In this document: positions 876-48,420 of the stretch, piece after piece
Position numbering within the stretch: position 1 is the stretch's first letter
Layout: every line of letters begins with the position of its first letter
Assembly (NCBI GenBank): GCA_014905635.1
Contig: JABVCE010000010.1
Location: 620,001-684,000, forward strand
Direction: 5' to 3'
Length of the DNA stretch: 64,000 bases
Source: Scenedesmus sp. PABB004
Lineage: Eukaryota
Translations under genes and position numbers: made by a program
The notes under the pieces: generated by a model
What the model saw: only the letters and a program-made list of their open reading frames with translations
The model's database searches: none
What the model was told of the DNA's origin: nothing

Positions 876-1007
876 GGTGTTCATGTCAACTGCCTGACCG
901 AGTTGGGGCGGCTGACCGGGAAGGGGTGGGGCGCGGGGTGGGGGCGATTGGCGGCGCGTTGCCGAGGGCGCGGGCGGCTGCGTGCGACCCGACACCCTCC
1001 CAACGGA

Positions 1008-1012
1008 TGTAA
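1008..1012 (+). promoter_or_regulatory. TGTAA chlorophyte polyadenylation signal of the upstream gene
   Basis: TGTAA ~130 nt after the stop at 875. Equivalent signals lie at 41680-41684 (+, after LCB2) and 49858-49862 (-, after the fasciclin gene). Confidence 0.6.
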
Positions 1013-1553
1013 CGCTGACAGCGCACGAGAGAAGCCGAGCCGGTTACCGTCGGGTGCCGCTACGCTGACTAGTTATTGTCGAGGGCCAGAAAAATGGATG
1101 AATCAAGGGCGCCGCAGCACCCCAACCACACCGGGCCGGTTGGCATGCGAGCGGTGCCTGGATGCAGGCGGGCCGCCAACGCGCGGCCAAGTGCTCACAC
1201 ACTCACTCTGCATGGATGGTGCTAGCCGTGCGACTGCTCTACTCTGAAAGTGGCGAGCGCAACAAAATGCCGGTGCTGGGGTTGGGTTGGGGGTTATCCA
1301 TGCCGCCCTCGTGCCTTGCGTCGTGGTGCAGCTTGTGGGCGGGCGGCTGCCGCCGTGCTCGACGCAGTCGCGTGGCGCTGCAGAACGCCATCAAATGTGC
1401 CAATCAAATGGAGACGCCGCCGGGGCCGTCGACGCGGGGGGTCGAACCAACCGACAAACGACAGGCCCAGCAGAAAAAAACGTGAGGCGCACCGCGCGCG
1501 TCCCGTGAGGCGCGTTGGATCAAACAGCGCGCGCTGCCGCCGCGCGCGGCAGC

Positions 1554-4275
1554 CTAGGTGCTCGCGCACGCGACGACGTTGGCGCCCTGCGCGCACTGCG
1601 CGCCGCGCCCGCTCGGCCAGCCGGCCGCGGTGTAGATGGGGCGCCCATTCATAAGAGAGTAGGCCTTGGGCGGGCCCCACCAGCCATAGCCATAGCGCCC
1701 CGCGCCGCGGCCACCCATGCCTCCCATGCCCCAGCTCGAGCCGCCGCGGTGCCCCATCCCGCCGGCGCGCTCCTGCACCTTGGCGCCCTTCGCGGGCGCC
1801 GCAGCGGCCGTGGCGGCCGCGGCGTGGCTCGTGGGGGCGGCGTGCGCGGCGTGCGCGGCGTGCGCGGCGTGCTTGGCGGCCTCCTTGGCGGGTGCGGGCT
1901 TCGCCGGCGCGGCCGCGGCCGTGGCGGGCTTGCTCAGGGGCTTGGCGTGAGCCTTGTGGGTGGCGGCGGGTGCCTTGGCGGCGCGCTCAAGCCCTGGAGT
2001 TGGCGGCGGGAGCGGGGCGCGCGCGTGAGCCCGAGCCGGGCGCGTCGTCTGCAGGCCCAGCTGCACCGGTCGCGTGGCGGCGCGGGCAGTCGGCGGGCTG
2101 CCCGCCGACTCACCGTCCACTTGCCTGTTGGGCGCCCAGGAGCTCCAGGAGCCAGGCCCGTAGCTGCCGCCTGAGTGGGCGCTGCCGCGCTCCTCCTTCT
2201 TGAGGGTGCTGGCCAGGAGGGCGCGCGCCGGCGCCCAGTACTGCCAGGAGTCGGGCCCAGAGCTCCCGCCCGACTTGGCGTTGCCGCGCTCGAGGGCCTC
2301 GCCCTTCACGGGCTGGATGGCGCGCAGCTGGCGCTGGGGCGCCCAGTACTGCCAAGAGTCGGGGCCGGTGCTGCCGCCAGAGTGCGCCTGGCCGCGCTCC
2401 TGCTGCTTGTCGGCGTTGGCCAGCAGGGCGCGCTGGGGCGCCCAGTACTGCCAGGAGTCTGGGCCGGTGCTGCCGCCGGAGTGCGCCTGGCCACGCTCCT
2501 GCTTCTTGTCAGCGTTGGCCAGCAGGGCGCGCTGGGGCGCCCAGTACTGCCAGGAGTCTGGGCCGGTGCTGCCGCCGGAGTGCGCCTGGCCACGCTCCTG
2601 CTTCTTGTCAGCGTTGGCCAGCAGGGCGCGCTGGGGCGCCCAGTACTGCCAGGAGTCAGGGCCGGTGCTGCCGCCAGAGTGCGCCTGGCCGCGCTCCTGC
2701 TGCTTGTCGGCGTTGGCCAGCAGGGCGCGCTGGGGCGCCCAGTACTGCCAGGAGTCTGGGCCGGTGCTGCCGCCGGAGTGCGCCTGGCCACGCTCCTGCT
2801 TCTTGTCAGCGTTGGCCAGCAGGGCGCGCTGGGGCGCCCAGTACTGCCAGGAGTCTGGGCCGGTGCTGCCGCCAGAGTGCGCCTGGCCACGCTCCTGCTG
2901 CTTGTCGGCGTTGGCCAGCAGGGCGCGCTGGGGCGCCCAGTACTGCCAGGAGTCTGGGCCGGTGCTGCCGCCGGAGTGCGCCTGACCGCGCTCCTGCTGC
3001 TTGTCGGCGTTGGCCAGCAGGGCGCGCTGGGGCGCCCAGTACTGCCAGGAGTCTGGGCCGGTGCTGCCGCCAGAGTGCGCCTGACCGCGCTCCTGCTGCT
3101 TGTCGGCGTTGGCCAGCAGGGCGCGCTGGGGCGCCCAGTACTGCCAGGAGTCTGGGCCGGTGCTGCCGCCGGAGTGCGCCTGGCCACGCTCCTGCTGCTT
3201 GTCGGCGTTGGCCAGCAGGGCGCGCTGGGGCGCCCAGTACTGCCAGGAGTCAGGGCCGGTGCTGCCGCCGGAGTGCGCCTGGCCACGCTCCTGCTGCTTG
3301 TCGGCGTTGGCCAGCAGGGCGCGCTGGGGCGCCCAGTACTGCCAGGAGTCTGGGCCGGTGCTGCCGCCGGAGTGCGCCTGGCCACGCTCCTGCTGCTTGT
3401 CAGCGTTGGCCAGCAGGGCGCGCTGGGGCGCCCAGTACTGCCAGGAGTCTGGGCCGGTGCTGCCGCCGGAGTGCGCCTGGCCACGCTCCTGCTTCTTGTC
3501 AGCGTTGGCCAGCAGGGCGCGCTGGGGCGCCCAGTACTGCCAGGAGTCAGGGCCGGTGCTGCCGCCAGAGTGCGCCTGGCCACGCTCCTGCTGCTTGTCG
3601 GCGTTGGCCAGCAGGGCGCGCTGGGGCGCCCAGTACTGCCAGGAGTCTGGGCCGGTGCTGCCGCCGGAGTGCGCCTGGCCACGCTCCTGCTTCTTGTCAG
3701 CGTTGGCCAGGGGGGCGTGCGAGCCGTCGTTGGTGGCGGCGCCCTTCTCAGGAGTGGTCGCTGCGGGCAGCGACAGGCAGGCGGGGTGGTGTAAGCGAGC
3801 AGGCATCGCCACAGCACGGCAGCCGCTGCCGCAGCCGAGCGCGCGCCGCGCCGCGCGGCGGCGCCCGCTCACCGAGGAGGCCGCGGATCGTGTTGGTGCG
3901 GGCCTGCTTCCAGCCGCCCACGATCTGGTTGTCGCGGATGTTGTTGCCGGCGCGGCGCTGGTAGTTGTACCCACGCTCGTGCACCGCGTCGCTGCCGGGC
4001 TCGGGCAGCTCCTTGATCGGCCGGGCGGCGGCGTCGGCTGCGCACGGCGGACGCGGCGGCGCGGGGCGACGGGCGTGAGAGCGGGGCGCGGCGGCGGCGG
4101 CCCAGCGCGCGCGGCGTGTGGGGCTGCGGCCGGGGGCGGTGCGGGCGCGCGCCCCGCGCTCTGGGCGCCGCCGCCAGCCCCCACGCCCCCGCCAGGCCGC
4201 GCCGCCGGCGCGCCGCGAGCGCTCACCCGCAATGGCCGTGGCCAGCAGCAGGGCTGCGACGGTGCACAGCTTCAT
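1554..4275 (-). CDS. Secreted multi-repeat peptide precursor (~766 aa). Exons 4275-4227, 4037-3873, 3760-2114, 1993-1554
   Basis: GCCGCCATG start and signal peptide MKLCTVAALLLATAIAADAAA. Three phase-1 GTGAG..CAG introns give a 2301-nt in-frame CDS. Contains 14 copies of LANADK(K/Q)QERGQAHSGGSTGPDSWQYWAPQR(A/Q)L plus 2 variants, then an Ala/Lys/His-rich linker and a Gly/aromatic C-terminal segment. Confidence 0.85.
2120..3710 (-). repeat. Coding 99-bp tandem array: 14 near-identical units (~2325-3710) plus 2 degenerate units (~2120-2325)
   Basis: The motif cagtactgcc recurs every 99 bp from 2344 to 3631. Units differ by synonymous SNPs and a K/Q codon (the last unit ends RQLR). Confidence 0.95.
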
Positions 4276-4950
4276 GGCGGCGGGCGTGTCGTGCACGGGG
4301 CTTGGTCAAGCCGCCTGGTCAAGCGCGCGGGCGGGCGGCGCGGGTGGGCGTCAGGGCGGGGCGCCGCATGGTCCCAGAGGCGCATCCTAGGGCGGGGGAG
4401 CGTTCTCGTGGCCCGCTGCGGCGCGCGGAGGCCTGGCGCGCGGGCTGGCGGGCCTACGGCCTGGGGGCGCCCGGACGCGAGCGCGCGCGTCGCGGCTGGC
4501 CGTTCGCGCGGGCGCTGCCACGGCGCAAGCGAGGCGTAGGCCGCGACCCTCACCTCCGGTGGCGTGCGTCGGGGGTGGCGTGGCCGGCACGCGCGGGGAG
4601 GAGGTGGTCGGAGTGCTGCACTCGTCGACGGCGACCGCACAATGGCGCTGGAGCGAGCGCAACGCGACCTTTATGCGCGTGGTGGGCCTACCGGGCGCGC
4701 GTTAGTCTGGGCGGGACGCGGGCCCCCGCGGCCCGCGTGCTGCCCGCGCAGCTGCCCGCGCAGCTGCGCCCAATCGGCTGGCAAGTGTGAGCGTGCTGGG
4801 GCGCACACTGGTGAGAGCGGGCGAGCTGCGCCGCGCGCTGTGGCGCGTGGCCAGCCGGCGACGCTGCTGCCGCCGCTGCCAGCGCCGGCCCGGCGGCCGC
4901 ACGGCGCATCGCCTGTTGCAGCAGCCCACGCCCCAGCAGCACACAGCCAG

Positions 4951-6950
4951 CTACCGCTGACCAGCGACGCCGCCCGAGGAAGAGGGCGTGCCGGCACGCA
5001 GCAGGCGCCGCGCGTCGCCGCCCGGGGCCGTGTCCGGGTCCTCGCCAGGCGGCGGCGCGCCCGGCTTGGTGCCGCCCGTGCTGCTGCTGCCGCCGCCGGC
5101 CTGCAGGCTCGCCATCTGCAGCGACTGCTGCTCCCCCGGCGGCGCGCCGCCGCCGCCGGGCGCGCCGCCGCCGGCCTCGCTGCTCTGCAGCGGCGCGTAG
5201 CCGGCGCGCAGCCGCGCCGCGACGCGCGCGGCCATGAAGCACGCCGCGCCGCCGGCGAGCGCAGCGACGGCGCTGAAGACCACCCAGCTCGCGACGCGCA
5301 CGCCGCCGGGCAGCACCGCGTCCGCGCCCGTGTCGAGGCCGCGGCGCGGCTGCAGCAGTGCCGGGTTCATCGTCGCCAGGTACTGGTACGTGCAGCCGCC
5401 CGGCTGCCCGGGCGCCGGCTGCAGCAGCAGCGCGCTGCCCTGGCGGAAGAGCCGCCCCGGCGACGCGCCCGCGGCGCAGTCGGCCGGCGGCGGCGGCGCG
5501 CCGGCGGCGCCGGCGCCGCGCCGCGCCGCCGCCTCGTCCTCCGCAGCGCTGAGCGCGTCGTCCGCGCCCTCGTCCTCATCGCCGGCCTCGCCGCCGCCGG
5601 CCGCCGTTGCCAGCCGGCGCCGCTGCCGCCGCCGCCGCGCCGCGCGCAGCCGCAGGCGGCGGCGGCGCCGGTCGCCCCCGCCCGCCCCCAGCGCGGCGCT
5701 GTCGGCTGAGGCGCTGCCGTTCGCAGCAGCGCCGGTGACGTTGGCGCCTGCGGCGCTCGGCGCTGGCACTGCGCCGGCGTCCGTGCCGGAGGCGCCGGCG
5801 TCCGCGCCGGCGGCGCCAGCTGCCGCGGCGCCGCCGACGCTGCCGCCGCCGGCGGTGCCGTTGAGCGGCTGGGACGCATTCGCGGCCGCCGCTGCCGGCG
5901 GCCCCGGCGCCGGCACGCCTGTATTGTTCACGCCCGCCGCGCCCGCCGCGGCGCCAGCAGCGCCCGCCGCCGGCAGCGGCGCGGGCGTTGAGGGCGGGAC
6001 GGGCTGCTGCTGCGGCTGGCCGCCGGGCTTGTGCCGCCTGCCTGGGCGGGCCCGCGCGCCCCCCGCGGCCGTGCTGTTGCTGCGGTGCCGCGCCCCCGCC
6101 GCGGCCGTGCCGTTGCGCGGCCGGTGGCCGCCGCGCCGGCGCGGCTGCGCGGGGCGGTGGCGCGGCGCGCTGCCGCCGGCCGCGCCCGGCGCTGCCGCGG
6201 CGGTGGCGTTGGCGCCGCCCGCTGCCTGCGCCGGCGCCGGCGCCGACGCCGCGCTGCCGGCGCTGGCGCAGCTCGCGCCGGTCCGGCCCTTGCGCTGCGC
6301 GACCGCGCGGCCAAACAGCTTTGCCAGGCTCGCCAGCGCCGCGGCCTGCGCGCTGGACGTGTTGACGGGGACGTCGGACCCCAGCGACGCCGGCAGCGCA
6401 TTGGCGAACTTGGCGGGGCTGATCACGCCGACCAGGCTCGCCGAGTTCGCGTCTGCGCCCGCGGGCAGCGCCGGCGCTCGCGCGCTGCGCTGCGCAGCGC
6501 CGGCGCTGCGCGCGCAGCGTCGCGCCCCCGCCGCCGCGCGCGGCCCCGCGCACCTGTGAGCGCGCCGCGCGCAAACATCGCCGCGCACAGCGCCGCGTGC
6601 CGCGAGCCGCGCGGCGGGCGCGGCGTCAGCACGACGGTGCAGTCCTGCACCGTCGCGCGCACGGACGAGAAGCAGGCCGCGACGGCCGCCGCGACCGCCG
6701 AGTGCCCGGGGCGGCACGCGGGCGCCAGCTGCGCCGCATTGGCGAGCACCAGGCGGCTCGCGCCCGTGTTGCACGTGCGCCAGGTGGTGTTGGTGTGGGT
6801 GCTGGCCTGCGCGCCAGGCGCGGCGCCCGCCGCGCCGCCGCCGCACGCGAGCGACAGCCCGAGCAGCAGCAGCGGCAGCAGCGCCGGCAGCGGCGCCGAG
6901 CGTTGCCCGCGCCCTGCGGAGGCGCTGCCCGGGTCGCGGCGCCTCGTCAT
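4951..6950 (-). CDS. Uncharacterised type-I membrane protein: signal peptide, Cys-containing N-domain, Ala/Gly-rich N-glycosylated stalk, one TM helix, short cytosolic tail. Exons 6950-6554, 6452-4951
   Basis: Hydrophobic PALLPLLLLGLSLACGG; intron 6553-6453 (GTG..CAG, in frame); several NxT/S sites; TM segment VASWVVFSAVAALAGGAACFMAA followed by R..R.R and YAPL. Confidence 0.6.
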
Positions 6951-7373
6951 GAGGACCGGCGCCCTCAGCACGAGCGGCGGGAAGCGCCCAGCTCGAGGGT
7001 GCTGCACGCGAGGAGGCCCGCCCGGGGCCCTAGGCCGCGCACTCCCGTCTCGCCGTGAGCAGCTCGGGCGCGGAGCGCGGCACTGGCTTGGCCAGCGATC
7101 GGTCGCGAGGGGGCGCAAGAGCGGGGCGCGCAGCCGCGCCGCGGGGCGCGACGGCGGGCGGCACGGCAGCGGCGCGCGTCGTTCGCGGCGGCAGCAGCGC
7201 GCGAGCAGCAGCTCCTAGCTGAGTGAGGCGTGAGCGCCCCAGGTGGGGGGCGTCGGCGCGGCGCACTAGAACCTCGGCGCCTGCCCGCGTGACGAGCGAC
7301 CGGCGCCGCCGCCCCGCCGCGCGCCGCGCCGCGGCGCACGCACACCCCCGTTCCCCCCCGCCACCCCGCAACG

Positions 7374-15005: not shown

Positions 15006-16489
15006 TCACTGCTCCTTTTTGTCGTCGCCGTCCGCCGCCGCCGTTGCCGCGGCCGCGGCCTCCGCCTCGGCCGCGTGCTCCTCCTGGTGCGCCCACACCG
15101 CGGCGAGCTCGCCGCGCAGCACGGCGTGGCCCGCGACGGTCGCGAGCACGGCGGGCACGATGTAGAGAAGCGCCGGCTGCGCCGCGTTGAACGCGTTCAT
15201 CACGCCGATCGTCGTGCCCAGGCCGGCGACGTAGCCCCAGAACACGCTCGCAAAGTAGTTTGAGCGGAACCCGCCCGCGACGTCGTAGCGCAGCATCAGC
15301 GCGACAAAGAGCCCGGGGATGACGATGTCGCCGAGGCCGAGCATCGCAAAGTTGGGCTTGGGCGCGGCGCCGCCGGCCGCGGCGGCCGCGGCGGCGGCCG
15401 CCGCGCGGCGCGGGAAGAGGAGCTTGATCGGGGCCTCGAAGTTCTTGGCGACCGAGACCATGACGGGCGTGCAGAAGACCCAGAATATGTCATACACAAA
15501 CAGCCCGGCCAGCAGGATGGCCGCGGTCTTGACGCTGCCGAGGCTGACGCTCTCGATGCCGAGCACGCTGAACGCGATGCCGAGCGCGTTGTTCGCGAGC
15601 CAGTGCTTGGTCGCGCAGTACCACGCGCCGAGCGCGAGCGCGGGGCCGCAGAGCACGAGCTGCGGGAGCGTGAGCTCGAGCGGCGTCGGCTCGGGGCTCA
15701 GCAGCGGCACCGCGGGCAGCGTCGGCAGGCGCAGCACGCGGCGCCGCGCGCCCGGCGGGAAGAGCGGCGCCACGAACGGCAGCGCGAGGGAGTTGATCGC
15801 GAGCGCGCCGAGCAGCGTGATGTAGGAGGAGAGGACGAGGTTGACCAGCCACTTGGGGACGAACTTGAAGCACAGGAACAGCCCAAACAGCACGCAGCTG
15901 CCCATCTGCGCCAGCCGGCGCGCCGCGCGCGCGCGGTCCGTCAGACAGGCGGAGAGCGCGGCGTGGGGAGGGGAGGGGCGGCGGCGGCGGCTGCCGCGCC
16001 GCGCGGGGTCGGCGCGGCGCGGCGCGGCGCCCCCCGCCGCGCCCGGCGCACGATCGGAAACTTCATGGCGTCCCGGTGCGTCATGCTCTCCTGCGGCGCC
16101 TCCGACTGCACCGAGCGCCAGCAGCCGACGTACACGGTCAGCGCGGCGTGGAGCACGACGCTCACGCTGCGCGCGGCGCGGCCGCCGCAGGCGGGTGGGC
16201 GGCGGCTGCGGCCGGCCGGCGCCGCGCGGCGCGGCTGCGCGCCGCCGCCCGCCGCAGCGGCCAGGTGCGGTCCCCTGCGCCGTCTGTGACACCGCCCAGG
16301 CCGCCGGGCGGGCGCTGGGCGCGGCCGGCGCGGCCGCCAACCGCCGAGCGCTGCTGCGCCGGCCGCCGAGAGAGCGCACCTGTACGGGATGTACACGACC
16401 GTGGGCAGCAGCGTGAGCGCCAGGAGCAGCCCGTGCGCCTTGAGCGCGGGCGGCAGGCTCTGCCCATCCCACTTGACGAACGAGCCCAT
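15006..16489 (-). CDS. SPP: Signal peptide peptidase (peptidase A22B, presenilin-type aspartyl intramembrane protease)
   Basis: Catalytic YDIFWVF and LGLGDIVIPG motifs, QPALLY motif, C-terminal KKxx (DDKKEQ). Three exons: ~16489-16380, ~16166-16052, ~15906-15006. Confidence 0.95.
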
Positions 16490-17085
16490 GCTGCCGCTGC
16501 TGATGGCCGCTGCTGATGGCGGGCCGGGGCGGCCGGGAGCGGCCAGGAACGCGGCAGTGGTGGCGCGCTCGCTGTGCCTAGGACTGCCGCCGCTGCCGCT
16601 GCACCGCCGCACTGCACCGCCGCGCTGCGCCGCCGCACTGCACCGCCGCGCTGCGCCGCTGCCGGAGCGCCGGCGCCATCTGATTATTAAGGCCGTTGAA
16701 CGGCAGCACGCGTGGCGGCTGCAATGCATCGTCGTCGCCGCTCGCTCGCTCTCCCCACGCCCCGCGCGCTGCGTTTATCCGCAACTTGCTGCTGTGCACG
16801 GCTGTGCACGAGTCATTGTTTCGCGGGCGCGCCCGCCACAAAAGGATGGAGCATACCCGCAGCCAACCTGGGCGCCCGTCGTGTGCGCGACCGCCGGCGC
16901 CGGCCGGCGCCGCCCAAAGCCCCAGTCCTGCCCCGGCGCGCGCGCGTGCGCGCGGCGCAATTGTGACGCCCGCGCGACCGCGGCCGCGCGCCAACCGACG
17001 CACAGCCCCCGGGCCGGCGGCCTGGCACTGATGATGATGCAGCCAGGCGGGCGCGCCCCCTCGCAATCCCGTCCCGCGCCGCGGC

Positions 17086-27925: not shown

Positions 27926-30124
27926 TCACTCGCCGCGCGCTGGCGCCGCTGCCGCCGCGCCGAGCGTGCGCGCGACCGCCGCGGCCGCGGCGCCCAGGCC
28001 GTCCTCGCCGCGCAGCGCCGCCGCCGCGGCCGTGGCCGCGGCCTCGAAGCCGGGGCGCCCGGGGCCGAGCAGCTGCGCGAGCGCGGCGCCCAGGCGCGGG
28101 GCGGTCATCGCCTCGAGCGGCAGCGGCGCCGGCCCAACGCCCAGGCGCGCGCAGGCCTCGCCCCAGAAGAAGAGGTCGCCAAAGGCAGGCACCGCGAGCG
28201 TCGGCCGCCCGCACCGCAGCCCGACCGCGGTCGTGCCGACGCCGCCGTGGTGCACCAGCGCCGCGCAGCTGCGGCGCGAGACGGGCGCCCGTGGCCGTAG
28301 CGCGCCGCGGCGGCAGCGCGCGCGGCGCTGCGCCTGCGCGCGCGCGGCGCCCGCGCCGCCCGCAGGCAGGCGCTCACCGGGGGAACAGCCAGTCGTGGGG
28401 CGCCTCGGCGATGCGCAGCACCTGCGCCCCGCCCGCTGCCCCGCCCGCCACCGCGCCCGCGCCGCCGCCGCCGGCGGCGGGCGCCGACCAGCCGCTGCAC
28501 AGGACGACGCGCTGCCGCGCCGGCAGCGCCGCGAGCGCCGCCTCGACCTCGGCCGCGTGACGGGCGCTCAGCACGAGGCTGCTAAAGCCGACGTACAGCG
28601 GCGGCGGCCCGCCGGCCAGGAACGCCGTGAGCGCCGGCGGCGGGCGCCAGCCCGCGCCGGCGCGGGGGCCGCCGGGGCCGGCGTCGCTGCCGCCGCCGCT
28701 GCCGCCCGGGCTGTCGCCGGCGCCGGCGCGGCCGAAGCGCGCGAGCGCATCGTCCAGGAACACAAAGCCGCCGACGCCCACGTGCGCCGCCCAGTCGGCG
28801 GGCCGGGGCACGAGGCGCGCGCTGAAGAGGCAGGACGCGGGCAGCCTGCGGGGCGGCGGCACGGGCGGCGGCGCGGGCGTGAGCGGAGGGGCCTGCAGCG
28901 CGCGGCGCGGCGCGCGCGGCGGCGCGCGGCCGCGCGCCCCGCGGCCGCGGCGGCACCGATAGAGCGCTCCCGGCAGGTCGTTGGGCGAGAGCAGCGGCAG
29001 CCCCAGGCGGCGGCGGAAGCGGAGGACCAGGTCAGCGATGCCCGCCCAGGCGGTCGAGTCGAGCAGCGGGCCGCTGGCCGCGTTGGCGGCGGCCGCGACG
29101 CGCGCGAGCAGCACGCGCCGCGCGCGCGCCGCGGCGCCCGGGCGCAGCGCGGCGAGCGGCGCCAGCAGCGGCGCCGCGGCCGCCGCTGCCGCGGACGCGG
29201 CGTAGTCGGCCACGTTGGCCCCGTACGCGCGCGCCCACGGGTGCGGGAACGCCGCGGTCGGCAGCCAGGGCACTGTGAGCAGCACGTGCAGAGGCTCGCA
29301 CAGCGCCTCCGCCACGTGCACCTGCGGCCGGCGGCGGGCGGGCGGCGCTGGCCGCCGCCGCTGCACCATGCTCGCCAGCGCGGCGCCCCGCCAGCGGGCT
29401 GCGCGACGCCGCGGCGCGCCTGGCCCCAGGCGAGCTGGTTGGCGGCGATCAGGTCTGGCTGAAACGCGGCCGCGGCCGCCCAGACGCTGTCCTGGACCTT
29501 ATCGATTTGCCTTCGCAGCCACGTGATGCCCCCGAGCTCGGTCGGCAGCATGCCCCTGTCCACGCGGCGCGCGGGCGGCGGGCGGCCTGTGGCTGCCGCG
29601 GCGTGACGGCCGCGGCGGCGCGCGCGCGCGAGAGCCTCCGCCCGCGGCGCGCGAGAGCCTCCCCCCGCGGCGCGCGCGCACCCCCAGCGAACGGTGAGCA
29701 CCATCATGCGCCGCGCGTCGCCGCCGAGCGGGGCGAAGGCGAGGCCCGGCGCGCCCTCGACCAGGCCCTGCAGCGCCCGGTCCGCCGCGAGACACACGAT
29801 CGCCCCCTGCGCGGCCAGCGCGACGCCCAGCGCCGCGGCGGGCTGCACGTCGCCGCGCGTGCCGCCAGCGACGATGAGCACGCGCCGCCCGCGCAGGGCG
29901 CCGCCGAGGTCGTCGGCGGCGAGCGCCGCGGCCGCCACCGCCGCCGCCGCGACGCTGGCAGCGCCGCCGCCGGCCGCGCCGCGCGGCGGCTCTCGCAGCG
30001 GGGGCGTGCCCGGCGCCGCCGGCGGCTTGTCCGGGGCCGCCGCGGGCCGCGCGTCGGCTGCGCTGCCGGCCGCCGTGACGGCGCGCGGCGCCGCCTCGCC
30101 CGCCTCGGCCTCGCTGACGTCCAT
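27926..30124 (-). CDS. Sterol 3-beta-glucosyltransferase-like glycosyltransferase (UGT80/UGT51 type, GT-B fold)
   Basis: GGTRGDVQP, TVPWLPTAAFPHP, LYVGFSS, PHDWLFPR|CAALVHHGGVGTTAVGL..PAFGDLFFWG..LGVGP; multi-exon. Confidence 0.9.
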
Positions 30125-30696
30125 CGCAGCGGCGCGCACGTGAACGACCGAGGGCGGTGCGGCTCGGGATGTGGCGCGCCAGCGGCGGCCGCGTCGGCGC
30201 CGGCGCCTGCGGAGTCGCCGCGGTTTGGAGACGCTGCGTCGCGCACGTCCTTGCACGGCCTCCGTGCAACCCTCCAGCACCACACGACCACGCGCACCGG
30301 CGCCGCATCGAACCAGGGCGCGCACGCCGGACGCGGCGCAGCAGCAGCGGCGCGCCGCACGTTCGCGCCTGATGAGCTCGCAGCGGCGCAGCGCCACCGC
30401 CACCGCGACCGACCCACCTGCGCAGCAGCAGGACGAGCACGCATGCGAGCCGCCGCGCCTTCAATGAAGGCCTGCGCACGCCCGGCCGCCTCTCGCCCGC
30501 TGCTGCACAAAAAGCTTGCGTGCAAAGGCTGCAGGAACGCGCATGGTCACCACGCCACTCTGAGCATGGGGCCTGCTTCAGCGGGCGCAGCTGCAGGTGC
30601 GCCGCCGCTGCTGCGCCGCCGCCGCTGCTGCTGCGCCGCCGCCGCCGCTGCCGCTCGCGCCGCCATGCCCCCGCGCCGCCCCGTCCGCCAGGCGCC

Positions 30697-31598
30697 ATGG
30701 TGCACCCGCGCCTGCGGCACGGCGTGGCAGCGGCGGCGGCCGGCGGCCCGGGGCCGGGGCCGGGCACGAGCCTGCAGCCGCAGCCCCCCGCCGCGCCGAG
30801 CGCGCCGCCGAGCCGCAGCGGCAGCAAGGACCTCGAGGCGGCGCTGCCGGGCGCCCCCGGCGGCGGCGAGCCCGGCAACCCGAGCTGGCTCACGCTGGTG
30901 GGCAGCGCTGGGCACCCGCCGGGGCGGGGCGCCGCCTCGGTGCGGCGCGCGCCCGGCGTGAGGCGGCGACCGCGCCCGCCGCCGCCGCAGGTGCTCGTGG
31001 CGGCAGCGGGCGTCGTGATCTGCTACGCCGACCGCTCCAACATGAGCACCGCGATCCTGCCCATGGCAGAGGCCTTCAACTGGGACAAGGCGCGCCGCCG
31101 CGGGCGCGGGCGCGGCGCGGCGGGCGCGCGCTGCGCTCTCGGCGGCGGCCCGCGTCGCATTGCGCGCGCGCGCGCGCGCGCCCACGTCGCGCGCCCACGC
31201 CGCGCCGCGCACGTCGCCCCGCGCGCGCGCAGGCGTTTGAGGGCGTCGTGCTGTCTGCATTCTTCGCCGGCTACGCCGCGACGCAGGTGCTCGGAGGTGC
31301 GCCGCCGCCGCCGCTGCCGCCGCCGCGCCGCGGGGCGCGCGGGGTCCCTGCTGCTGGTCCGCCGGCCGCTGGTCCGCCGTCCCACGGCCCGGGCCGGCGC
31401 ACAGGCTCGCTGGCGGACCGCTACGGCGGCAAGCTCGTGCTCACCGCGGGCGTCTTCCTCTGGTCGGTCTTCACCGTCGCGACGCCCGCGGCCGCCGCGG
31501 CGGGCACGCCCGCGCTGCTCGCCGCGCGCGTGCTGCTCGGCGTGGGCGAGGGCGTGGCGTTCCCCTCGATCCACTCCATCATCGGTGCGCGCCGTCAA

Positions 31599-31672
<74 letters not shown>

Positions 31673-31677
31673 GCGCA

Positions 31678-31712
<35 letters not shown>

Positions 31713-33177
31713 GCGCAGCCGCCGCCGCGCGCAGCCGCCGTCGCCGCTGCGCGCGCGGCCCGCGGCCCGCGGCCCACGGACGGCGGCCCACAGCCCACGG
31801 CCGGCGGCCCGTGCGACCCGCGCGACCCGCCCCGCGCCCCGCGCCGCCGCCGCGCAGCGCGCAACGTGCCGCCGAGCAAGCGCTCGACCGCGGTCGGCGT
31901 CGTGACCGCGGCGTCGTACGCGGGCACGGCGCTCGCGTTTGGCATCAGCCCCCTCCTCATCAGCCGGCTTGGCTGGCAGTGGGTCTTCTACTTGTTTGGC
32001 GCCTCGGCGCTGCTCTGGCTGCCGGTGTGGCTTCCGCTCAACGTGCAGCGCGAGCTCGCGCCGCCGGGCGGCGCGGGCGCCGGCGCCGGCGCCGCGCCCG
32101 CCGGTGGCAGCGGCAGCGGCGGAGCCGCCGCGTGCGGCGGCGCGGCGGACGCGGACGCGCCGCCGGCGCCCGCGGGCGCCGGCGGCGGCGGCGAGGAGGA
32201 GGGGCAGCCGCTGCTCGCGCGGGCGAGCTTCGAGATCGTCCCCGGCGCCGCCGCCGCCGCCGCCTCCGCCGCCGCCGCCGGGGCGCCGCCGCGCGGCCCG
32301 CGCGCCGCGCCGGGCACGGGCTTTGCCGCGCTCATGCGGCGGCGCGAGGTCTGGGCCATCTGCGCGTGCCAGTACGCGCAGAGCTACGGCATGTACGGCC
32401 TGCTGACCTGGCTGCCCACCTTTTTCAGCGACTACTATCACGTCGAGGTGGGAGACCTCGGTGGCTATACGCTGCTGCCGTACGTCGTGCAGGTGCGCGG
32501 CCGGGCGGCGGCCGGCGGGGGCGGCCGACGGAAGCAGGGCGCGGCGGCAGCAGAGAGAGAAGCGGGGGGGGGGGGGGGGGGGCGCGGGCGGACGCGCGCG
32601 CGCGCGCGCGGGCGGGCGCGGCCGCCGACGCCGCGCGCGCGCGCGCGCCGCCGCCGCGCGCGCAGGGCCTGGTCGGCCTCGGCGCGGGCGCGCTCGCCGA
32701 CTCGCTGCTCGCGACGCGGGGCTGGGGCGTGCGGCGCGTGCGCGTGGTGCTGCAGCTCGCGGCATGCTCGGCCCCGCGGCCTGCCTCGCGGCCGCCGTGT
32801 CGCCGCTCGGCGGCGGCTCGCCGCAGGCCGCGTCGGCCTTCATCACGCTCGGCCTCGGCCTCAGCGCGCTCTCGCTCGGCGCGGTGAGCGTGAACCACCT
32901 GGACATCGCCCCCCGCCACGCGGGCATGGTCTTTGGCGCGGGCAACACCGCCGCGACGCTCGCGGGGCTCGTGTCGGTGCCGCTCACCGGCCTGCTGCTC
33001 GAGCGCACGGGGAGCTGGGCGCTGGTCTTCGGCATCATCGGCGCGCACTTTGTCGCCGGCAGCGCCGCGTGGGCGGCGTGGGTCGGCGACACGCCGCTGC
33101 CGGAGGACGGGCCCGACGACGGCGGCGCCGCGCCCGGCCGCGGCCGCGCGCTCGGCGGCAGCGCCGCGGGCGGCTGA
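30697..33177 (+). CDS. MFS anion:cation symporter (SLC17/PHT4-ANTR family phosphate/anion transporter); apparent frameshift at ~32762
   Basis: ICYADRSNMSTAILPMA, SAFFAGYAATQVLG|GSLADRYGGK, LGVGEGVAFPSIHS, LLTWLPTFF, NHLDIAPRHAGMVFGAGNTAATLAG. Confidence 0.92.
31599..31712 (+). repeat. (GCC)n microsatellite in an intron of the anion transporter
   Basis: Long perfect GCC run at 31599-31670 and a second run to ~31712. Confidence 0.9.
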
Positions 33178-33357
33178 GGCGACGCGGCGCGGCGTGCACG
33201 CGGCGCGCGCGCAGCAATGCCTGGCTTGCAGGTCACTTTGCAACACGACCCAAGCATGCTGGCAGGCAGGCACGCCACTCTTGCTTTCAGACTCTCCTGA
33301 GAGACTCGAACTCAACACGCGGCAGCAGTCGCTCTCGCCCCGCCGCTCACGCCGCCG

Positions 33358-36300
33358 TCACGGCACCGCGCCCCCGCCCGCGCCAGCGCCGCCGCCGCCG
33401 CCGCCCCCGCCCCCGCCCGCGCCGCCCGCCGCGGGCACCAGGTACGCAAGCCCCAGCTGCGCGAGCGCGGCGCGCACCGCCTCGGCGGCGGGGCCGCCCG
33501 GGTCGCGCAGCTCGCCCGCGAGCGAGAGCAGCGGCCCGACCGCGTCGGCGAGGAAGAGCTGGCGCTTGACGTTGGCGTTGATGGCGAGCACCGTGATGAG
33601 GTTGGTCGCGAGCACCTTGGAGCGCAGCAGCAGCTCCCGCGGGCCCGCGCCGCCGCCGCCGGCGGCCGCCACGCGGCTGCTGGCGCGCCCGAGGCCGCGG
33701 CCGCGGCCCGCCGCCGCGGCGGCGCCGCTCGGCGGCGGCGCGCCCGCCGCCGCGCCGGCGCGGCGGCGGCGCGGGCCCGGGGCCCTGCCGCAGCACGCCG
33801 ACAATGACCGGGATGATGGCCGCCGCGAGCAGCACGCGCCGGTGGCACAGGCTCAGGCTGTCCAGCAGCGCGAGCAGCTCGACCTGCAGCACCAGCCGCG
33901 CGTGCGCCGACGCGCCGCCGCCGCCCGCCGCCGTGTCCTCGCCGCCGCCGCCGCCGCCGTCCGCGCCGCCGGCCAGCGCCGCGACGACCGCGCTGAGCTG
34001 CGACACGACCTGGCCGAGGCCGTCCGCCGCGAGGAACGCCTCGGCGAGGCGCGCGTCGAGCTCCACGCAGCAGCGCAGCAGGCGCACCGCCGCGCGCTGC
34101 ACGGCGCGCGCGCGCGCGCCGCCGGTGCCGTCCGGCGGCGGCGGCTTCAGCGCGCCGCCGCCGCCGCCGCCGCCGGGGCCCAGCCGCATGTTGAGGCAGG
34201 CGAGGCAGAGGCCCAGAAGCTCGGAGCGCTCGGCATCGGAGGCGAGGCCCCCCAGCGCGGCGCCGTCGACCGCGCCGGCGTCCAGCAGCGCGGTGAGCAC
34301 GGCAGCAGCCGCCGCCGCGTCGTCGTCGGGGGCCGCCGCGCCGGCGCCGGGCGCCGCCGCCGGGCAGGCGCGGCCGCTCAACCAGCGCGCGAGCGGCAGC
34401 AGCACCGGCTCGCGCGCTGCCGCCGCGCACAGCTGGCGGTCGCCCGTGCTCGTCAGCGCCGCGAGCGTGGCGAGCGCGGTGGCGCGCGTGCGCGCGGCCG
34501 CGCCGGCGTCGTCGCATTCAAAGCCCAGCAGCATGCGCAGCACGCCGGCGGCGACGCCCGCGGCGTGCAGCTGCTCGGGGCACGCCGCGCCAAGCTCGGC
34601 CGCCAGGCGCAGCGTCGCGCGCGCCGCGACCGCGCCGGCGGCGTTTGGCTGCACCTCGGCCATGCACTCGGCCAACGTCCGCGCCACGCCGTGCTCCAGC
34701 ATCGCCGCGCCGCACACGTCCGGGCTGGCGGCCGCGAGCGCGGCGAGCAGCTCGGCCGCGGCGGTCGCCGCCCACTGCTCGCCCAGGAGCGTGACGAGCA
34801 GGAGCATGGGGCTGCCAGGATCTTCCACCGGCTCGCCCGGCGCGGCGCCCGCCGAGGTCGTGGAGGGCGCGCGCGGTGCAAACGGCGCCCACGGCGCCGC
34901 CGCCGCGGCGTCTGCGCCGGACGGCGCCGCCTGCGCCTGCGCCCTGTCCTTGGCCGCCGGCGCCTGGTGGGCGGCGGGCTTTGCCTGCGGCCCGGCAGCC
35001 GCCTTGCCCCCGAGCCCCAGGCGCGACAGCAGCCCCGTGCTGCTGCTGCGCACGAGGCTGGCGCCGCCGGCGCCGCCGCTGCCGCCGCCCCCACTGCCGC
35101 CACCGCCGCTGCCGCCACCGCCGCTGCCGCCGCCCAGCACGCTGGCGTTGCCCAGGCTGCTGCTGAGCACGGGCGCATGCACCGCGACAAAGCTGCCGCC
35201 GCCGCTGCTGCTGCTGCTGCTCGCGAAGCTGAGCGGCGTGGCGGGGAGGTGCCGTGGGCTCTGCGGCAGCGGCGTCGGCACGGCGCGCGGGCCGCCAGCC
35301 GCGCGGGGGCTGTCGGCCGCGCCGCCACTAAACAGCGAGGCCGCGGCGCCGGCGAGCGAGGTGCCGCCGCTGCCCTGCCTGCCGACGCGCATCGCAAGCA
35401 CGCCGCCCGCCGCGGCGGCCTGATACGCGGCCTCCAGCTGCGCGGCCACCGCCGCGGCCGCGGGCGAGCAGCTGCACAGGTGCGCGAGCGCTTCCAAGGC
35501 GCTCTGCGTCTGCTGCAGCGAGGGCAGGCTCTCGTCCAGCAGCGCCAGCAGGTGCGGCGCGAGGCTGCTGCCCTGCTTTGCCCCGGGGCCGAGCGGCGGC
35601 TGCTCGCCGGCGATCGGGAAGCTGCGGAGGCCCTGCCGCCACTGCAGCGGCGGCGGCTGCTGCTGCTGCTGCTGCGGCTGCTGCTGCTGCTGCTGCTGCT
35701 TCTGCTGCTTCTGCGGCTCGTCGGCGTCGCTGCCGCCCTCCGCTGTCGCTGCCTGGATGAGCTGCGTGAGCGCCACCGCCAGCAGCGACCGCCCGGTGGG
35801 CAGCCAGGCCCACAGCACCTGCACCCAGCCCTGCGCGATCATCGACTCGAGCAGCGCTGGCTCGCGGTGCGCCGCCAGCGCCGCCACAAGTGAGAGCAGC
35901 TGCTCATGCAGGCTCGCCACGTGGTGCGCCGGGCTGAGCAGCAGCTGCTGCAGCAGCCACAGCAGCGCGGCCACCGCGCCAGGCCCGTCCCGCGCCGCCG
36001 CGGCGCCGCCGCCGGCCGCGTCGCCGCCGCAGCCGCTGCCGCGGCGCAGGGCCGGCACGAGCTGGCCCAGGTCGCCAAACGCGGCCGCCGCGGCTGCGGG
36101 GTGCTTCCAGACAAAGCTGGGGCTGCTCATGATCGCAGCTGCTGCCGCAGGCGACGGCCCCGGCGCCGCGCCGCCCGCCGCGCCCGTCAGTGCCGCCGAC
36201 AGCTGCGACTGCGGCCGCCCGTCGCCGGGCTGCGACTGCGCCGGCGGCTGCGCGTCGCCCGCGCACGTCGCGCGGGCCACCAGGATCTCTGGGCTGGTGG

Positions 36301-38364: not shown

Positions 38365-41300
38365 ATGGGCGAGACCGGGCACGCGTCGGCGCCCTGGTAC
38401 ATCAACGCCATATGCACTGCGGCGTGAGCAGCTGCGCGACGCGGGCCACCGGCGCCAGCGATGGCCGCGCGCGCTGCACCAGGCGCGCGGCCCCGGCCTG
38501 GGCGGCCTCCCGCCCCCCTCACGCGCGACCGCCGGCGCACAGGCTGTCCGTGGTCATCTTCTGCGGCCGCATACGGGACCTGTTCTGGCGCCGCCCGCAG
38601 ACGCGCAAGGTGCACGGCGCGCGCACGCGGCGGCGCTCGCGCACGCGCGCTCGCCGGCCGCCCCGCTGCGGAAGGCCGCGCGGACCGGCCTCCCTGGAGG
38701 GCAGCAGCGGCCCCCTTGCGGCCGCGCGGCCCGCGGGCGCGGGCGCCGACGCCGCGGCGCGCCGCTGCGGCCGCGCGGCGCCGCGCCGCGCAGGGCTACG
38801 CGGACCTGTCGGACCAGCGGGAGGACTTTTACAACCGGCGCATGTACCGCCGCATCCACGTGAGGCGCAGCGGCGGCCCGCGCGCCGCGGGGGCGCCGCG
38901 CGGCGGTTGTTGGGCGGGCGCCGCCGGCGGCGCCCGCGCCCCGCGCCCGCCGCGCCCGCCCGCGCCGACGCGCCGGCGCCGCGCGACCGTGCGCGCGCGC
39001 CGCAGGACTGCTGGAACCGGCCGATCAGCAGCGCGCCGGGGGCGTGGATTGACGTCATGGAGCGCGTCGACATCGACGGCCGCGCGTGAGCCCCGCCCGC
39101 GCCGGCAGCGCCCCGCGGCGCCCGCGCCGGCAGCGCCCCGCGGCGCCCGCGGCGGCCGCGGCGGCAGCGCCCGCGCGCCCGCCCAGCGCCCTCCGCCGCC
39201 GCCGCCGCCGCCGGCGCAGCATGCGCGTCGACCCGGACGTGACGGGGCGGACGCAGCGCTGCCTCAACCTGGGGTCGTACAACTACCTGGGTTTTGCCGC
39301 GGCGGACGAGTACTGCACCCCGCGCGTGCTCGACACGCTGCAGGACTGGGGCGTCGCGACGTGCAGCCCGCGCTCGGAAGCGGGTGCGGCGGCGGCGGGG
39401 GGACGGCAGGGCGCGCGGCGGGGGACGCGGCGGCGCCGCGGGGTGGGGCGCGGTGCTGCGCCGCCGCCACGGCGTGGCGAGGCCGCCGCTCGCCGCTCGC
39501 CGCCGGCAGGCACGTGCGCGCTGCACGGCGAGCTGGAGGCGCTCGTGGCGGACTTTTTGGGCAAGGAGGACGCCATCACCTTTGGCATGGGTGCGCCCGT
39601 CTGACTGGCGGCGGCGCTGCGGCGTGCGCAGCGCTGCGCGGCGCAGCCGCCGCGACGCCCCCCCCTTCTGCCGCCCACGCCGCGCCTCCCCGCGCGGTCG
39701 CGCAGGCTTTGCCACCAACGCGGCGGCCATCCCCGCGCTCGCCGGCCCGGGCAGCCTGGTGCTGTCGGACGCGCTCAACCACACGAGCATCGTCGCCGGC
39801 GTCAAGGCGAGCGGCGCGGTGGTCAAGGTGTTCCGGCACAACGACATGGCCCATCTGGAGAAGCTGCTGCGCTGGCACATCGCCGAGGGCCAGCCGCGCA
39901 CGCACCGGCCGTGGAAAAAGGTGCGCGCCGCGCCGGCCGCGCGGCGGCGGTCGCGCGGCGGCGGTCGCGCGGCGGCGGCAGCGGTGGTCGCTGGGGCTGT
40001 GGGCAGTCGCTGGCCTCTGCGCCCGCGCTCTCGCACGCCCGCCCGCCCGCCTCCCGCCTCCCGGCGCCGCGCGCGCTCAGGTCATCATCGTGGTAGAGGG
40101 CATCTACAGCATGGAGGGCGAGACCACGCTGCTGCGCGAGCTGGTGCGCGCCGCGGCCGCCGCCGCCGCGCGCGGCCACGCTCGGGCCCGGCGAGGCTCC
40201 CGCCCAGCCGCGCGCGTCCAGTTTGGTCAATCCCCCAACTCGATCCGCCCGTCAATTGCCGTCTTCATTCTTGCCTTGTTCATGAATGAATGACATTGCC
40301 TTGTTCATAAATGCATAACATTGCCTTGTTCATAAATGAATAACATTGCCTTGTTCATAAATGAATACATTGCCTTGTTCATAAATGAATAACATTGCCC
40401 AACAACCTGACTAACCTTGCCCTGCTCGCTCACTTGCCCCCGTCTCCCCGCCAGGTCGAGGTGAAGAAGAAGTACAAGGCCTACCTCTACCTCGACGAGG
40501 CGCACTCCATCGGCTGCATGGGCGCGCACGGGCGCGGGCTGTGCGAGCACGCGGGCGTCGACCCCGCCGACGTCGACGTGCTCATGGGTGCGCACCCCCG
40601 CGCCCGCGCCCGCCGCCTGCCCGCCGCCGCCCCGCCGCCCTGCCCGCCGGCGTTGACGCGTGCGCCCGCCCGCGCGCCCGCCGCCGCCAGGCACGTTCAC
40701 CAAGTCGTTTGGCAGCGCGGGCGGCTACATCGCGGGCAGCCGGACGCTCGTTGCGTACCTGCGGCGCCACTGCCCGGCGCACCTCTACGCGAGCAGCATG
40801 GCCCCCGGCGTCGCGCAGCAGATCATGAGCGCGATACGCCTGCTCCAGGGCGCCGACGGCAGCGGCCGCGGCGCGGCCAAGATCAAGCAGCTGCACGACA
40901 ACGCCAACTACTTCAGGCGCGCGCCCCGCGCCCCGCGCCCCGCGACACGCGCCCCGCGCCCCGCGCCCCGCGCCCCGCGCCCCGCGCCCCGCGCCCCGCG
41001 CCCCGCCGCCGCCCGCCTGCCCCCTGCCCGCCTGCCTGCCTGCGCGGCCGCCCGCCCCCCTCTCACCCCACCACCACCACACGCACACGCGCACGCACAC
41101 CGCCCGGCCGCCCCGCCGCGCACCCGCGCGCAGGCGGCGCCTGCTGGAGCTGGGCCTGCACGTGCTGGGCGACTGGGACTCGCCGGTCATGCCGATCATG
41201 GTGTACCACCTCTGCTACATCAGCGGCATCAGCCGGCGCTGCCTCGCGCGCCATGTCGCGATGGTCGTCGTCGGCTTCCCCGCGACCGCGCTGCTGCAGA

Positions 41301-47499: not shown

Positions 47500-48420
47500 G
47501 CGATCTGGGCCTCTGACAAGCTGTGTCAGCTGCCGGTTCGCGCTGCCAGCCCGGCGAGCGAATAAAGAGCCCGCCAACCTGTGGCTGGCCAGCCAGGCTG
47601 TGGTCGCGCGCCGCTGCCCTGCCCGCTCCCGCGCGCCTCCCCAGCGGGCGCCGCGTCACTCACCCCGCAGCTTGGGCGCCCGCCGCGGCTTGGCGGCGTG
47701 TGTTGTGGCGCGGGCGGCCTTTGGATGGCGCGCGACGACCTCCACCGCCGTGGCGCTCCGCCCGCGGCGGCCCAGCGCAGCATCTAGGCTGCCCATGCTG
47801 CCGCCTGCGTTGTGCGGCGCAGCGCTGGCGGCGTGCGCGCCACAACCCTCCGCGCTCTGGCTGCTGGGGCGCGCTGGACGGGCTGGTGAGCGCGGGTCGA
47901 GCAAGCGCGAGCAGGCCAGGTGCCGGTGTGACGCGGCGAGCGAGCCGCGCGGCGATCTGCAACCGCGCGTTGTCATAAGGTAGGAGACTTGCGTCTGCGG
48001 CCATGCCCTGCGGCACACGTCGCCCGCCCTTGGGACGAGTCGAGCGCTGCCGCGTGGCCAGCAGGTGCGCGCCGAACGCTGCTGCGCCAGCGCATGCGCG
48101 CGCGCCGCGCGGCGCCGCCGCCAGGCTGGCTCGAGCGACGCCGAGTGCCGCCGCACAGCGGCGGCAGCTGCTGGGCTGCCTGTGAGGTGGCCGGCGGGCT
48201 GCAGCAGCTGCACGCGAGCTCGACGCGCCGCCAGACGGCTTGCGGCAGCAGAGTCAGTGACGGCCGCGCCGCTGGCACGCCGGCGCCCGGGCCAGCTCCT
48301 GCAGCGGCGGCGGCGAGGCCCCAGAGCACTGCAGTCGGGCGCTGCCACCGGCGTGCACGGCCCGGGAGCGCCGCAGGGCAGCAAGGAGCGCACCGCCGCG
48401 GCAGCGCTCCGCACGGGCAC

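Follow-up and report, generated by a model that had tools for sequence, protein, structure and literature searches.

Is a gene that repeats one short core with tryptophans sixteen times the source of many small secreted peptides, or does it encode a repeat protein that stays in one piece? The question is raised by a gene on the minus strand (4275..1554) of a 64,000-nucleotide stretch of contig JABVCE010000010.1, the whole of which we call the window. A preliminary description of this DNA read the gene as a secreted multi-core peptide precursor and as a candidate algal pheromone, peptide-hormone or RiPP (ribosomally synthesised and post-translationally modified peptide) system. Judged from its sequence, the locus is a real, spliced gene. 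Its repeats define a conserved motif family with a protease-type site, for which the peptide-precursor idea is plausible.

The gene model consists of four exons on the minus strand. Splicing 4275-4227, 4037-3873, 3760-2114 and 1993-1554 leaves 2301 nucleotides, which read as 766 codons and a stop. Exon 1 (4227..4275) carries the ATG at 4275 and a signal-like hydrophobic N-terminus (MKLCTVAALLLATAIA...), as seen in the model and by hydropathy; the GC content of its third codon positions (GC3) is 0.875. It is followed by intron 1 (4038..4226; 189 nucleotides, GTGAGC..GCGCAG, 89% GC), which was placed by the splice consensus and the reading frame. According to the spliced translation, exon 2 (3873..4037) encodes an N-terminal region with HERG...GGW...RGLL, the RGLL standing at residue 68. 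Removal of intron 2 (3761..3872; 112 nucleotides, GTGAGC..CCGCAG) brings exons 2 and 3 back into one frame. Exon 3 (2114..3760) is an open frame of 548 residues without a stop and contains a short lead-in and then the entire repeat array. After intron 3 (1994..2113; 120 nucleotides, GTGAGT..CTCCAG), exon 4 (1554..1993, GC3 0.918) adds an Ala/Pro/Lys/His-rich stretch, a Gly/aromatic-rich tail beginning QERAGG and two C-terminal cysteines (residues 754 and 763) before the stop at 1554-1556. All three introns share the form GTGAG..CAG. Coding periodicity is present in all four exons: GC3 ranges from 0.88 to 0.98 against 0.48 to 0.71 at second positions, and GC3 is 0.92 for the gene as a whole. 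This third-position excess indicates coding sequence, as expected in such a GC-rich genome. Intron 3 is itself in frame and free of stops, and its retention would give a continuous protein with 40 additional residues.

The repeats form a single array at 2130-3717 according to Tandem Repeats Finder (period 99, 15.9 copies, 92% matches, score 2573). In the protein they appear as 16 tandem units of 33 residues, with 99 nucleotides each in units 1-14. When ERG followed by any 19 residues and R is used as a pattern, 16 matches are obtained; 14 of these are exactly ERGQAHSGGSTGPDSWQYWAPQR, and the variants already quoted in the preliminary description account for the remaining two. Units 1-14 (2322..3707, minus strand; unit table and Tandem Repeats Finder) are built from the spacer ANADK(K/Q)Q, then ERGQAHSGGSTGPDSWQYWAPQ, then RALL, which is RQLR in unit 14. 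Units 15 and 16 (2115..2312, minus strand; unit table) have diverged spacers and the cores GNAKSGGSSGPDSWQYWAPA and GSAHSGGSYGPGSWSSWAPN. The sequence after the core is RALL in 14 units (13 of the identical ones and unit 15), RQLR in unit 14 and RQVD in unit 16, and WxxW occurs in 16 of 16. Together with the RGLL that closes the N-terminal region, the 13 RALL of the identical units and the one of unit 15 bring the number of RxLL sites in the 766-residue model to 15. A KK pair is found in the spacer of unit 16 and of five of the 14 identical units, the other nine reading DKQQER with no dibasic pair. Outside the array ER[G/A] was seen three times (HERG, LERA and QERA), where 0.43 occurrences are expected, and the HERG...GGW...RGLL of exon 2 resembles a unit 0 that has diverged strongly and would have kept both ERG and RxLL. 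A search of all six frames gave no further copy of the motif elsewhere in the window. The preliminary description had given the same 766-residue model with three introns, which is exactly reproduced by splicing and shows coding periodicity throughout, and its count of 14 cores plus two variants agrees with the pattern matches. Its rule that RxL(L/R) follows each core holds for 15 of the 16 units and breaks down in unit 16.

The variation between the units shows which part of the repeat is kept. The 14 units with identical protein cores occur in 10 distinct DNA versions, and five units are identical in DNA. Over the 22 codons of ER plus core, units 1-14 differ by six synonymous and no non-synonymous changes, and the sole non-synonymous variant within units 1-13 is the K/Q in the spacer. 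In units 15 and 16, the seven spacer codons have taken seven and five non-synonymous changes relative to the consensus and no synonymous ones. Over the 22 codons of ER plus core, the counts are seven synonymous to four non-synonymous in unit 15, and five to six in unit 16. Even with all or most of their spacer codons replaced, both units retain ERG, SGGSxGPxSWxxWAP and the following Arg. These counts bear out the earlier remark that the spacer changes freely while the core is kept. What emerges is a genuine coding gene whose core is constrained by selection and whose spacer is free; by itself this does not establish processing.

It might be argued that the locus is no gene at all but a recently expanded minisatellite lying in a chance open frame of a very GC-rich genome. 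The GC content of about 78%, the long open frames in all six frames and the youth of the array (the five units with the same DNA) would fit this, but a chance frame is hard to reconcile with GC3 periodicity in all four exons or with three consensus introns that restore one frame from a signal-like start to the stop. Nor does it agree with the ratio of six synonymous to no non-synonymous changes in the core, or with the motif being kept in the 28 independent fragments described below, down to about 40-50% identity. We regard this explanation as barely credible.

The N-terminus is probably that of a secreted protein. Residues 1-24 hold the only 19-residue window with a mean Kyte-Doolittle value above 1.6, and no other segment resembles a transmembrane helix. 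Within residues 1-17 the 11-residue means are 2.1-2.6; position 2 is a Lys, and the hydrophobic core is followed by small residues (AIA/ADA). The signal peptide of the preliminary description is in keeping with this profile, by hydropathy only. A plastid transit peptide was considered and dropped. The mature protein contains 10.1% Gln, 5.0% Trp and 17.5% Ala. Dibasic positions in the 766 residues are an RR at residue 44, the five KK spacers and residue 592, and none of them follows a Gly at the end of a unit.

The repeat gene is not an orphan: sequence comparison gives it a family, of which it is the first full-length member met in this analysis. When 1.84 billion representatives were scanned with HMMER, 25 matches at E <= 1e-3 were obtained. 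Eleven of these carry the motif (best E 6.9e-25) and are short fragments of 77-326 residues; the other 14, long repeat proteins in which the motif is absent, were discarded as repeat-on-repeat matches. A profile made from nine of the fragments found 26 proteins, 17 of them new, with sources jgi (20), ena (3) and lgn (3) and contigs of up to 71.5 kb (the length for P0029, P0035 and P0044, against 22.5 kb for P0005). All 26 are nameless or called 'hypothetical protein' and come from public metagenome and sequencing-run assemblies. Counting with the pattern GP[DGEN][SG][WY]xxW, which fixes G, P and the second W by definition, yields 55 units in 28 fragments, at identities down to about 40-50%. 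At the free positions, D occupies 40 and S 49 of the 55 units, and the first aromatic position is taken by W in 47 and by Y in eight.

Both sides of the motif were compared across these units. R-x-[L/M]-x follows within three residues in 35 of the 55, mostly as [GA]PNRQLL or QKQRQLL, and only after four to seven residues in a further 10 (APKEGTRKLQ/M), so that 45 have it within seven residues. Upstream, where 48 units offer 16 residues of context, two of them have ER, 29 have E-x-[GA]-[QGHA] and 42 have a Glu within 14 residues. The spacers vary freely in length and sequence among the fragments. Written as a consensus of the available sequences, the family unit is E-x-[G/A]-[Q/G], four to eight small or polar residues, GP[D/G]SW-x-[F/Y]-W, two to three residues and R-x-L-L. 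Conservation of both flanks in homologues, which the preliminary description had made a test of its reading, is accordingly divided: the RxL-type site is kept in most relatives, whereas of the upstream ER only the Glu remains.

Many fragments turn to nonsense directly after '...RQLLA(T)G' or '...NEGGNYGE'. Because such tails resemble prokaryote-style gene calling that runs on into introns beginning with GT, we infer from them that the fragments are exons of eukaryotic genes. A second flavour of the family, NEGGNYGP[GD]SW[MS]YW, is present in fragments P0010, P0029, P0032, P0034-P0041 and P0044, which end in NEGGNYG-E plus nonsense or start with nonsense plus A-GPDSW. Each unit of this flavour seems to contain an intron, in which case the repeats there would be exon-by-exon duplications.

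Other searches added little to this set. The array was also compared, at near and at shorter lengths, with a word-indexed protein collection, which returned none of 8000 scored candidates at E <= 1e-3, probably because its words are swamped by low-complexity proteins. Two scans of metagenome contigs with family alignments produced 61 and 109 pattern matches, of which tblastn confirmed none, and one genome per prokaryote species gave 31, again none confirmed. Among viral contigs there were six pattern matches, one of which passed tblastn as a relative of the array. No Pfam family matches any exon product at E <= 10. Matches of family members to Peptidase_C53 (3 of 23) and DUF645 (4 of 23) were below the cut-offs and scattered, and were rejected as noise. 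The best match of a profile search of the PDB, a homeobox protein at E 0.017, was likewise rejected, which leaves no credible PDB relative. No described family with the motif strings was found in open-access full text, where the only matches were three unrelated papers. The family appears undescribed as far as Pfam, the PDB and open-access full text reach, a scope that does not extend to annotated algal proteomes. The preliminary description had proposed to look for the core beyond this gene and did not recognise it from a described algal family; relatives do exist, in the form of the 28 fragments, and a described family did not emerge from these three sources.

Structure prediction suggests that the repeat protein is intrinsically disordered. 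AlphaFold2 gave a mean predicted local distance difference test score (pLDDT) of 44.1 for seven units as a single sequence. For five units with a 23-row family alignment it gave a pLDDT of 44.7 and a predicted template modelling (TM) score of 0.10, with three-residue turns at WQY as the only structure. The ESM Atlas model of one relative (P0012) has a pLDDT of 0.41; a feature search of the Atlas with the same relative gave no usable match, and all structure matches had TM scores of 0.36 or below. The mean hydropathy of the array, 0.362, lies below the charge-hydropathy boundary of 0.419.

How might such a protein work? From the motif and the repeat layout we tentatively propose, with a little less than even confidence, a polyprotein that is cut after RxLL by a subtilase of the site-1 protease (S1P)/SBT6.1 type. 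The signal peptide would bring the protein into the endoplasmic reticulum, and a protease like S1P or SBT6.1 would then cut after each RxLL, at 15 sites, in the secretory pathway. The products would be 12 identical Trp-rich peptides of 33 residues from units 2-13, together with unit 1 in an extended form and one or two variants. Exopeptidases may trim these peptides, as they do after cutting in the case of yeast alpha-factor, and the invariant WxxW or the Pro residues may be modified. The peptides would act outside the cell, perhaps as a signal, a pheromone or a defence. It is from the sequence that we infer secretion, cleavage, the identity of the protease and any bioactivity. We favour the precursor because 14 cores are identical while the spacers are free, because neither a domain nor a fold is recognised, and because ER[G/A] and RGLL recur outside the array in the manner of punctuation.

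Published substrates lend this some support. In the excerpts of PMC13082318, the plant proteases AtS1P/SBT6.1 and SBT3.5 and mammalian S1P cut at an RxxL/RxLx motif, with RRIL|A in RALF23 and RRLM|G in PROSCOOP12 as examples. R-x-L-L is the best match among the forms of this motif, and RKLM fits it as well. The view that RxL(L/K) is the S1P consensus fits what this source gives and is matched by the 45 homologous units with a site, not by the remaining 10. For green algae, the excerpts of PMC6313938 name the Chlamydomonas subtilase Cre14.g628800 as the closest to human SKI-1/S1P. The same excerpts describe precursors of the neuropeptide type as having a signal peptide, no recognised domain and multiple similar peptides, a profile that is matched here by the lack of a Pfam family and of a PDB relative. 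A more specific version, which we consider rather unlikely, would be a lineage-restricted green-algal family of pro-hormones or pheromones in which one transcript, its product cut at RxLL sites of the S1P type, gives about 16 Trp-rich extracellular peptides. Their WxxW would possibly be modified (C-hexosylation or an aromatic cross-link), and dibasic convertase sites and amidation would play no part. Two other ideas were dropped: a convertase site at ER|G, given a basic residue at P5 in nine of 14 units, and a Rubisco-binding or pyrenoid-linker motif, which was set aside from recall of that motif and given the classical hydrophobic N-terminus.

A number of observations speak against cutting. 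RxLL directly adjoins the conserved motif and may be part of a binding motif instead of a cut site; it is replaced by RQLR in unit 14 and RQVD in unit 16, and 10 of the 55 homologous units lack an RxL site and continue with xK(Q/N)N-EAGQ into the next unit. With the second flank, ER, present in just two of 48 homologous units, a single candidate site per unit is left. The grammar of dibasic or Gly-basic amidation sites is absent from the 766-residue protein. All relatives are fragments without DNA context, and the low pLDDT values are weak evidence given the shallow alignment. Pfam was run on 256 stop-to-stop open frames of the window (14, 101 and 141; mostly of at least 130 residues, with some overlaps left out), and no protease or modifying-enzyme domain was found in them, though genes split by introns can escape such a scan. 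Finally, the Gln/Lys-rich spacers and the C-terminal third, rich in Ala, Pro, Lys and His with a Gly/aromatic tail, would also be expected in a cross-linked protein of the wall or matrix.

These points lead to the reading that competes most closely, which we hold to be possible though doubtful: an uncut extracellular repeat protein that would serve the wall or matrix as a disordered multivalent scaffold, with GPDSWxxWxPxRxLL as a short motif for binding a polysaccharide, lectin or receptor. The Gln/Lys-rich spacers together with Tyr and Trp would serve in cross-linking, and the Ala/Pro/Lys-rich C-terminal part would anchor the protein or be glycosylated. Wall proteins of Chlamydomonas are cross-linked by transglutaminase and via tyrosines. 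The contiguity of RxLL with the motif, the homologous units without it and the poorly conserved ER flank are natural under this reading, as are the content of Gln, Trp and Ala and the APAKPAPAK/HAA stretch and GYGWWG tail, which are akin to the composition of matrix proteins; predicted disorder suits an intact scaffold and a precursor equally. On the other hand, Pfam recognises neither a pherophorin nor any other domain of wall proteins, and the 766-residue model has no N-glycosylation sequon and no (Ser-Pro)n or other hydroxyproline-glycoprotein motif, exon 4 having AP and KP dipeptides and no SPP run. Moreover, 14 exact cores despite synonymous drift indicate a tighter constraint than is seen in most structural repeats, and RGLL and ER[G/A] stand outside the array as well, like punctuation. 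Precursor and uncut matrix protein fit the data almost equally, and we put the precursor first.

A RiPP of the burpitide or dikaritin kind, in which a dedicated oxidase would macrocyclise the aromatic core (W-Q-Y-W) before or after excision, shares the layout of a signal peptide and many aromatic-rich cores with the ustiloxin-type precursors in the excerpts of PMC7329392. Still, we find it very unlikely: Pfam finds neither BURP nor DUF3328 nor any other domain in the protein, eight of the 55 homologous units begin the aromatic part of the motif with Tyr, and the conserved unit of about 25 residues, RxLL included, is long for such cores. Tailoring-type domains were also missing from the 256 frames, again with the reservation that intron-split genes could be missed; subtilase (peptidase S8), prolyl hydroxylase, BURP and DUF3328 were not among the Pfam matches. 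The RiPP part of the preliminary description is left without support by these results, and its analogy with Kex2-processed and dikaritin precursors fails on the dibasic sites, which are limited to the few KK spacers.

A VDE lipocalin domain (42062-44572, minus strand, E 7.8e-7), the intron consensus and other eukaryotic genes agree with a host that is a photosynthetic eukaryote and probably a chlorophyte. The algal setting assumed earlier is in line with the VDE match. A signal peptide peptidase (15009-16577, minus, E 3.4e-71) and a fasciclin domain (51522-52067, minus, E 1.9e-12) likewise point to a photosynthetic eukaryote as the source of the window. Pfam further identifies a GT28/EryCIII-like glycosyltransferase (27929-30460, minus), an MFS transporter (30564-33566, plus), a fragment of an aminotransferase (39243-40286, plus) and a lipoyl ligase (47984-49791, plus). 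At 55-62 kb (55374-62379, minus) lie genes with DUF11 repeats (best E 6e-30), including near-identical paralogues at 55374-56342 and 57517-58530 that each start with a Cys-rich part; the GC content of this region, 0.69-0.73, is below that of the rest of the window. Per 4-kb block the GC content of the window is 0.69-0.82, and it is 0.76-0.82 over most blocks, which is extreme for a eukaryotic nuclear region. Open frames longer than 100 residues number 382, spread over all six frames. Rfam at gathering thresholds gave no match in the window.

Closer to the repeat gene, the upstream neighbour on the same strand (4951-7029, minus) is a frame of 692 residues with many N-x-S/T sites, no Pfam match and a lone hydrophobic segment near its C-terminus; possibly it encodes a type I membrane glycoprotein. 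TGTAA is the polyadenylation signal of the chlorophyte type. It occurs at 1008, about 130 nucleotides past the stop (873-875) of a plus-strand gene whose end lies at the window's left edge, and was not found on the minus strand in the 650 nucleotides scanned downstream of the stop of the repeat gene. Contigs from four runs were compared with 3720-5000, leaving out the tandem array. The matches are mostly short GC-rich pieces from other organisms, and none bridges an intron, which is neutral with respect to expression. Short low-depth contigs (151-201 nucleotides, with 0-1 other letters and in one case three gaps) do lie end to end over 4473-4857, in the intergenic part upstream of the gene. 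They come from the coded runs X1, X3 and X4, of which X3 and X4 are labelled freshwater metagenome, so the organism or a near-identical one may occur there at low abundance. For window positions 1000-5000, the runs listed were five of DNA type, which contain 5-7% of the words, and none of RNA.

Animals, fungi and land plants have well-described secreted peptide signals. If the gene does encode a precursor, it would represent a multi-copy one with punctuation of the S1P type that is conserved across several uncultured relatives. It would then offer a defined peptide to test on mating, colony formation and responses to grazers or bacteria, a natural substrate for an algal S1P-like subtilase and a search pattern for more members. 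Should the protein remain intact, it would still present a new Trp-rich matrix motif, of narrower interest.

Comparison with known systems places the repeat protein between several of them. With fungal Kex2-processed repeat proteins (KEPs), alpha-factor and ustiloxin-type precursors it shares a start resembling a signal for the endoplasmic reticulum, tandem cores and a recurring protease-type motif, and with 16 x 33 residues it fits the KEP mining rule of at least three repeats of 8-100 residues given in the excerpts of PMC7329392. KEP repeats, however, are bounded by KR, KK, RK or RR, whereas here it is RxLL that recurs; moreover, the host is a photosynthetic eukaryote by its VDE domain and not a fungus, and the DUF3328 partner was not among the 256 frames. 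Animal multi-copy neuropeptide precursors, as profiled in the excerpts of PMC6313938, agree in having a signal peptide, no recognised domain and multiple similar peptides, but belong to a different kingdom and use the dibasic and amidation grammar that is lacking here. Within the green algae, the Chlamydomonas precursors of the Cre03.g204500/GATI-amide type are, according to the excerpts of PMC6919629 and PMC6313938, also domain-less and proposed as a source of extracellular peptides. That type works with subtilisin-like convertases and PAM on paired basic sites and Gly-basic amidation sites, neither of which the repeat protein has; in those excerpts one peptide is characterised from a 94-kDa protein, against 16 copies here, and no sequence relation was found. 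The W-x-x-W of every unit recalls C-mannosylated thrombospondin repeats (TSRs), since in the excerpts of PMC10154233 and PMC8433626 the first Trp of the WxxW/C sequon is mannosylated in the endoplasmic reticulum; unlike TSR proteins, the repeat protein has no TSR domain, and this first Trp is replaced by Tyr in eight of the 55 homologous units. The words plants, yeast, Chlamydomonas and protist are absent from the review PMC12990085. Substrates of plant S1P/SBT6.1 or SBT3.5 (RALF23, GLV1/CLEL6 and PROSCOOP12) belong to families without sequence similarity to the repeat protein, and in RALF23 the site stands immediately upstream of a single mature peptide, while here it follows the motif and recurs 15 times. 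As far as the excerpts of PMC13082318 describe them, these substrates nevertheless have the same Arg at P4 and Leu at P2/P1, and RALL|A and RQLL|A of the repeat family resemble their RRIL|A and RRLM|G.

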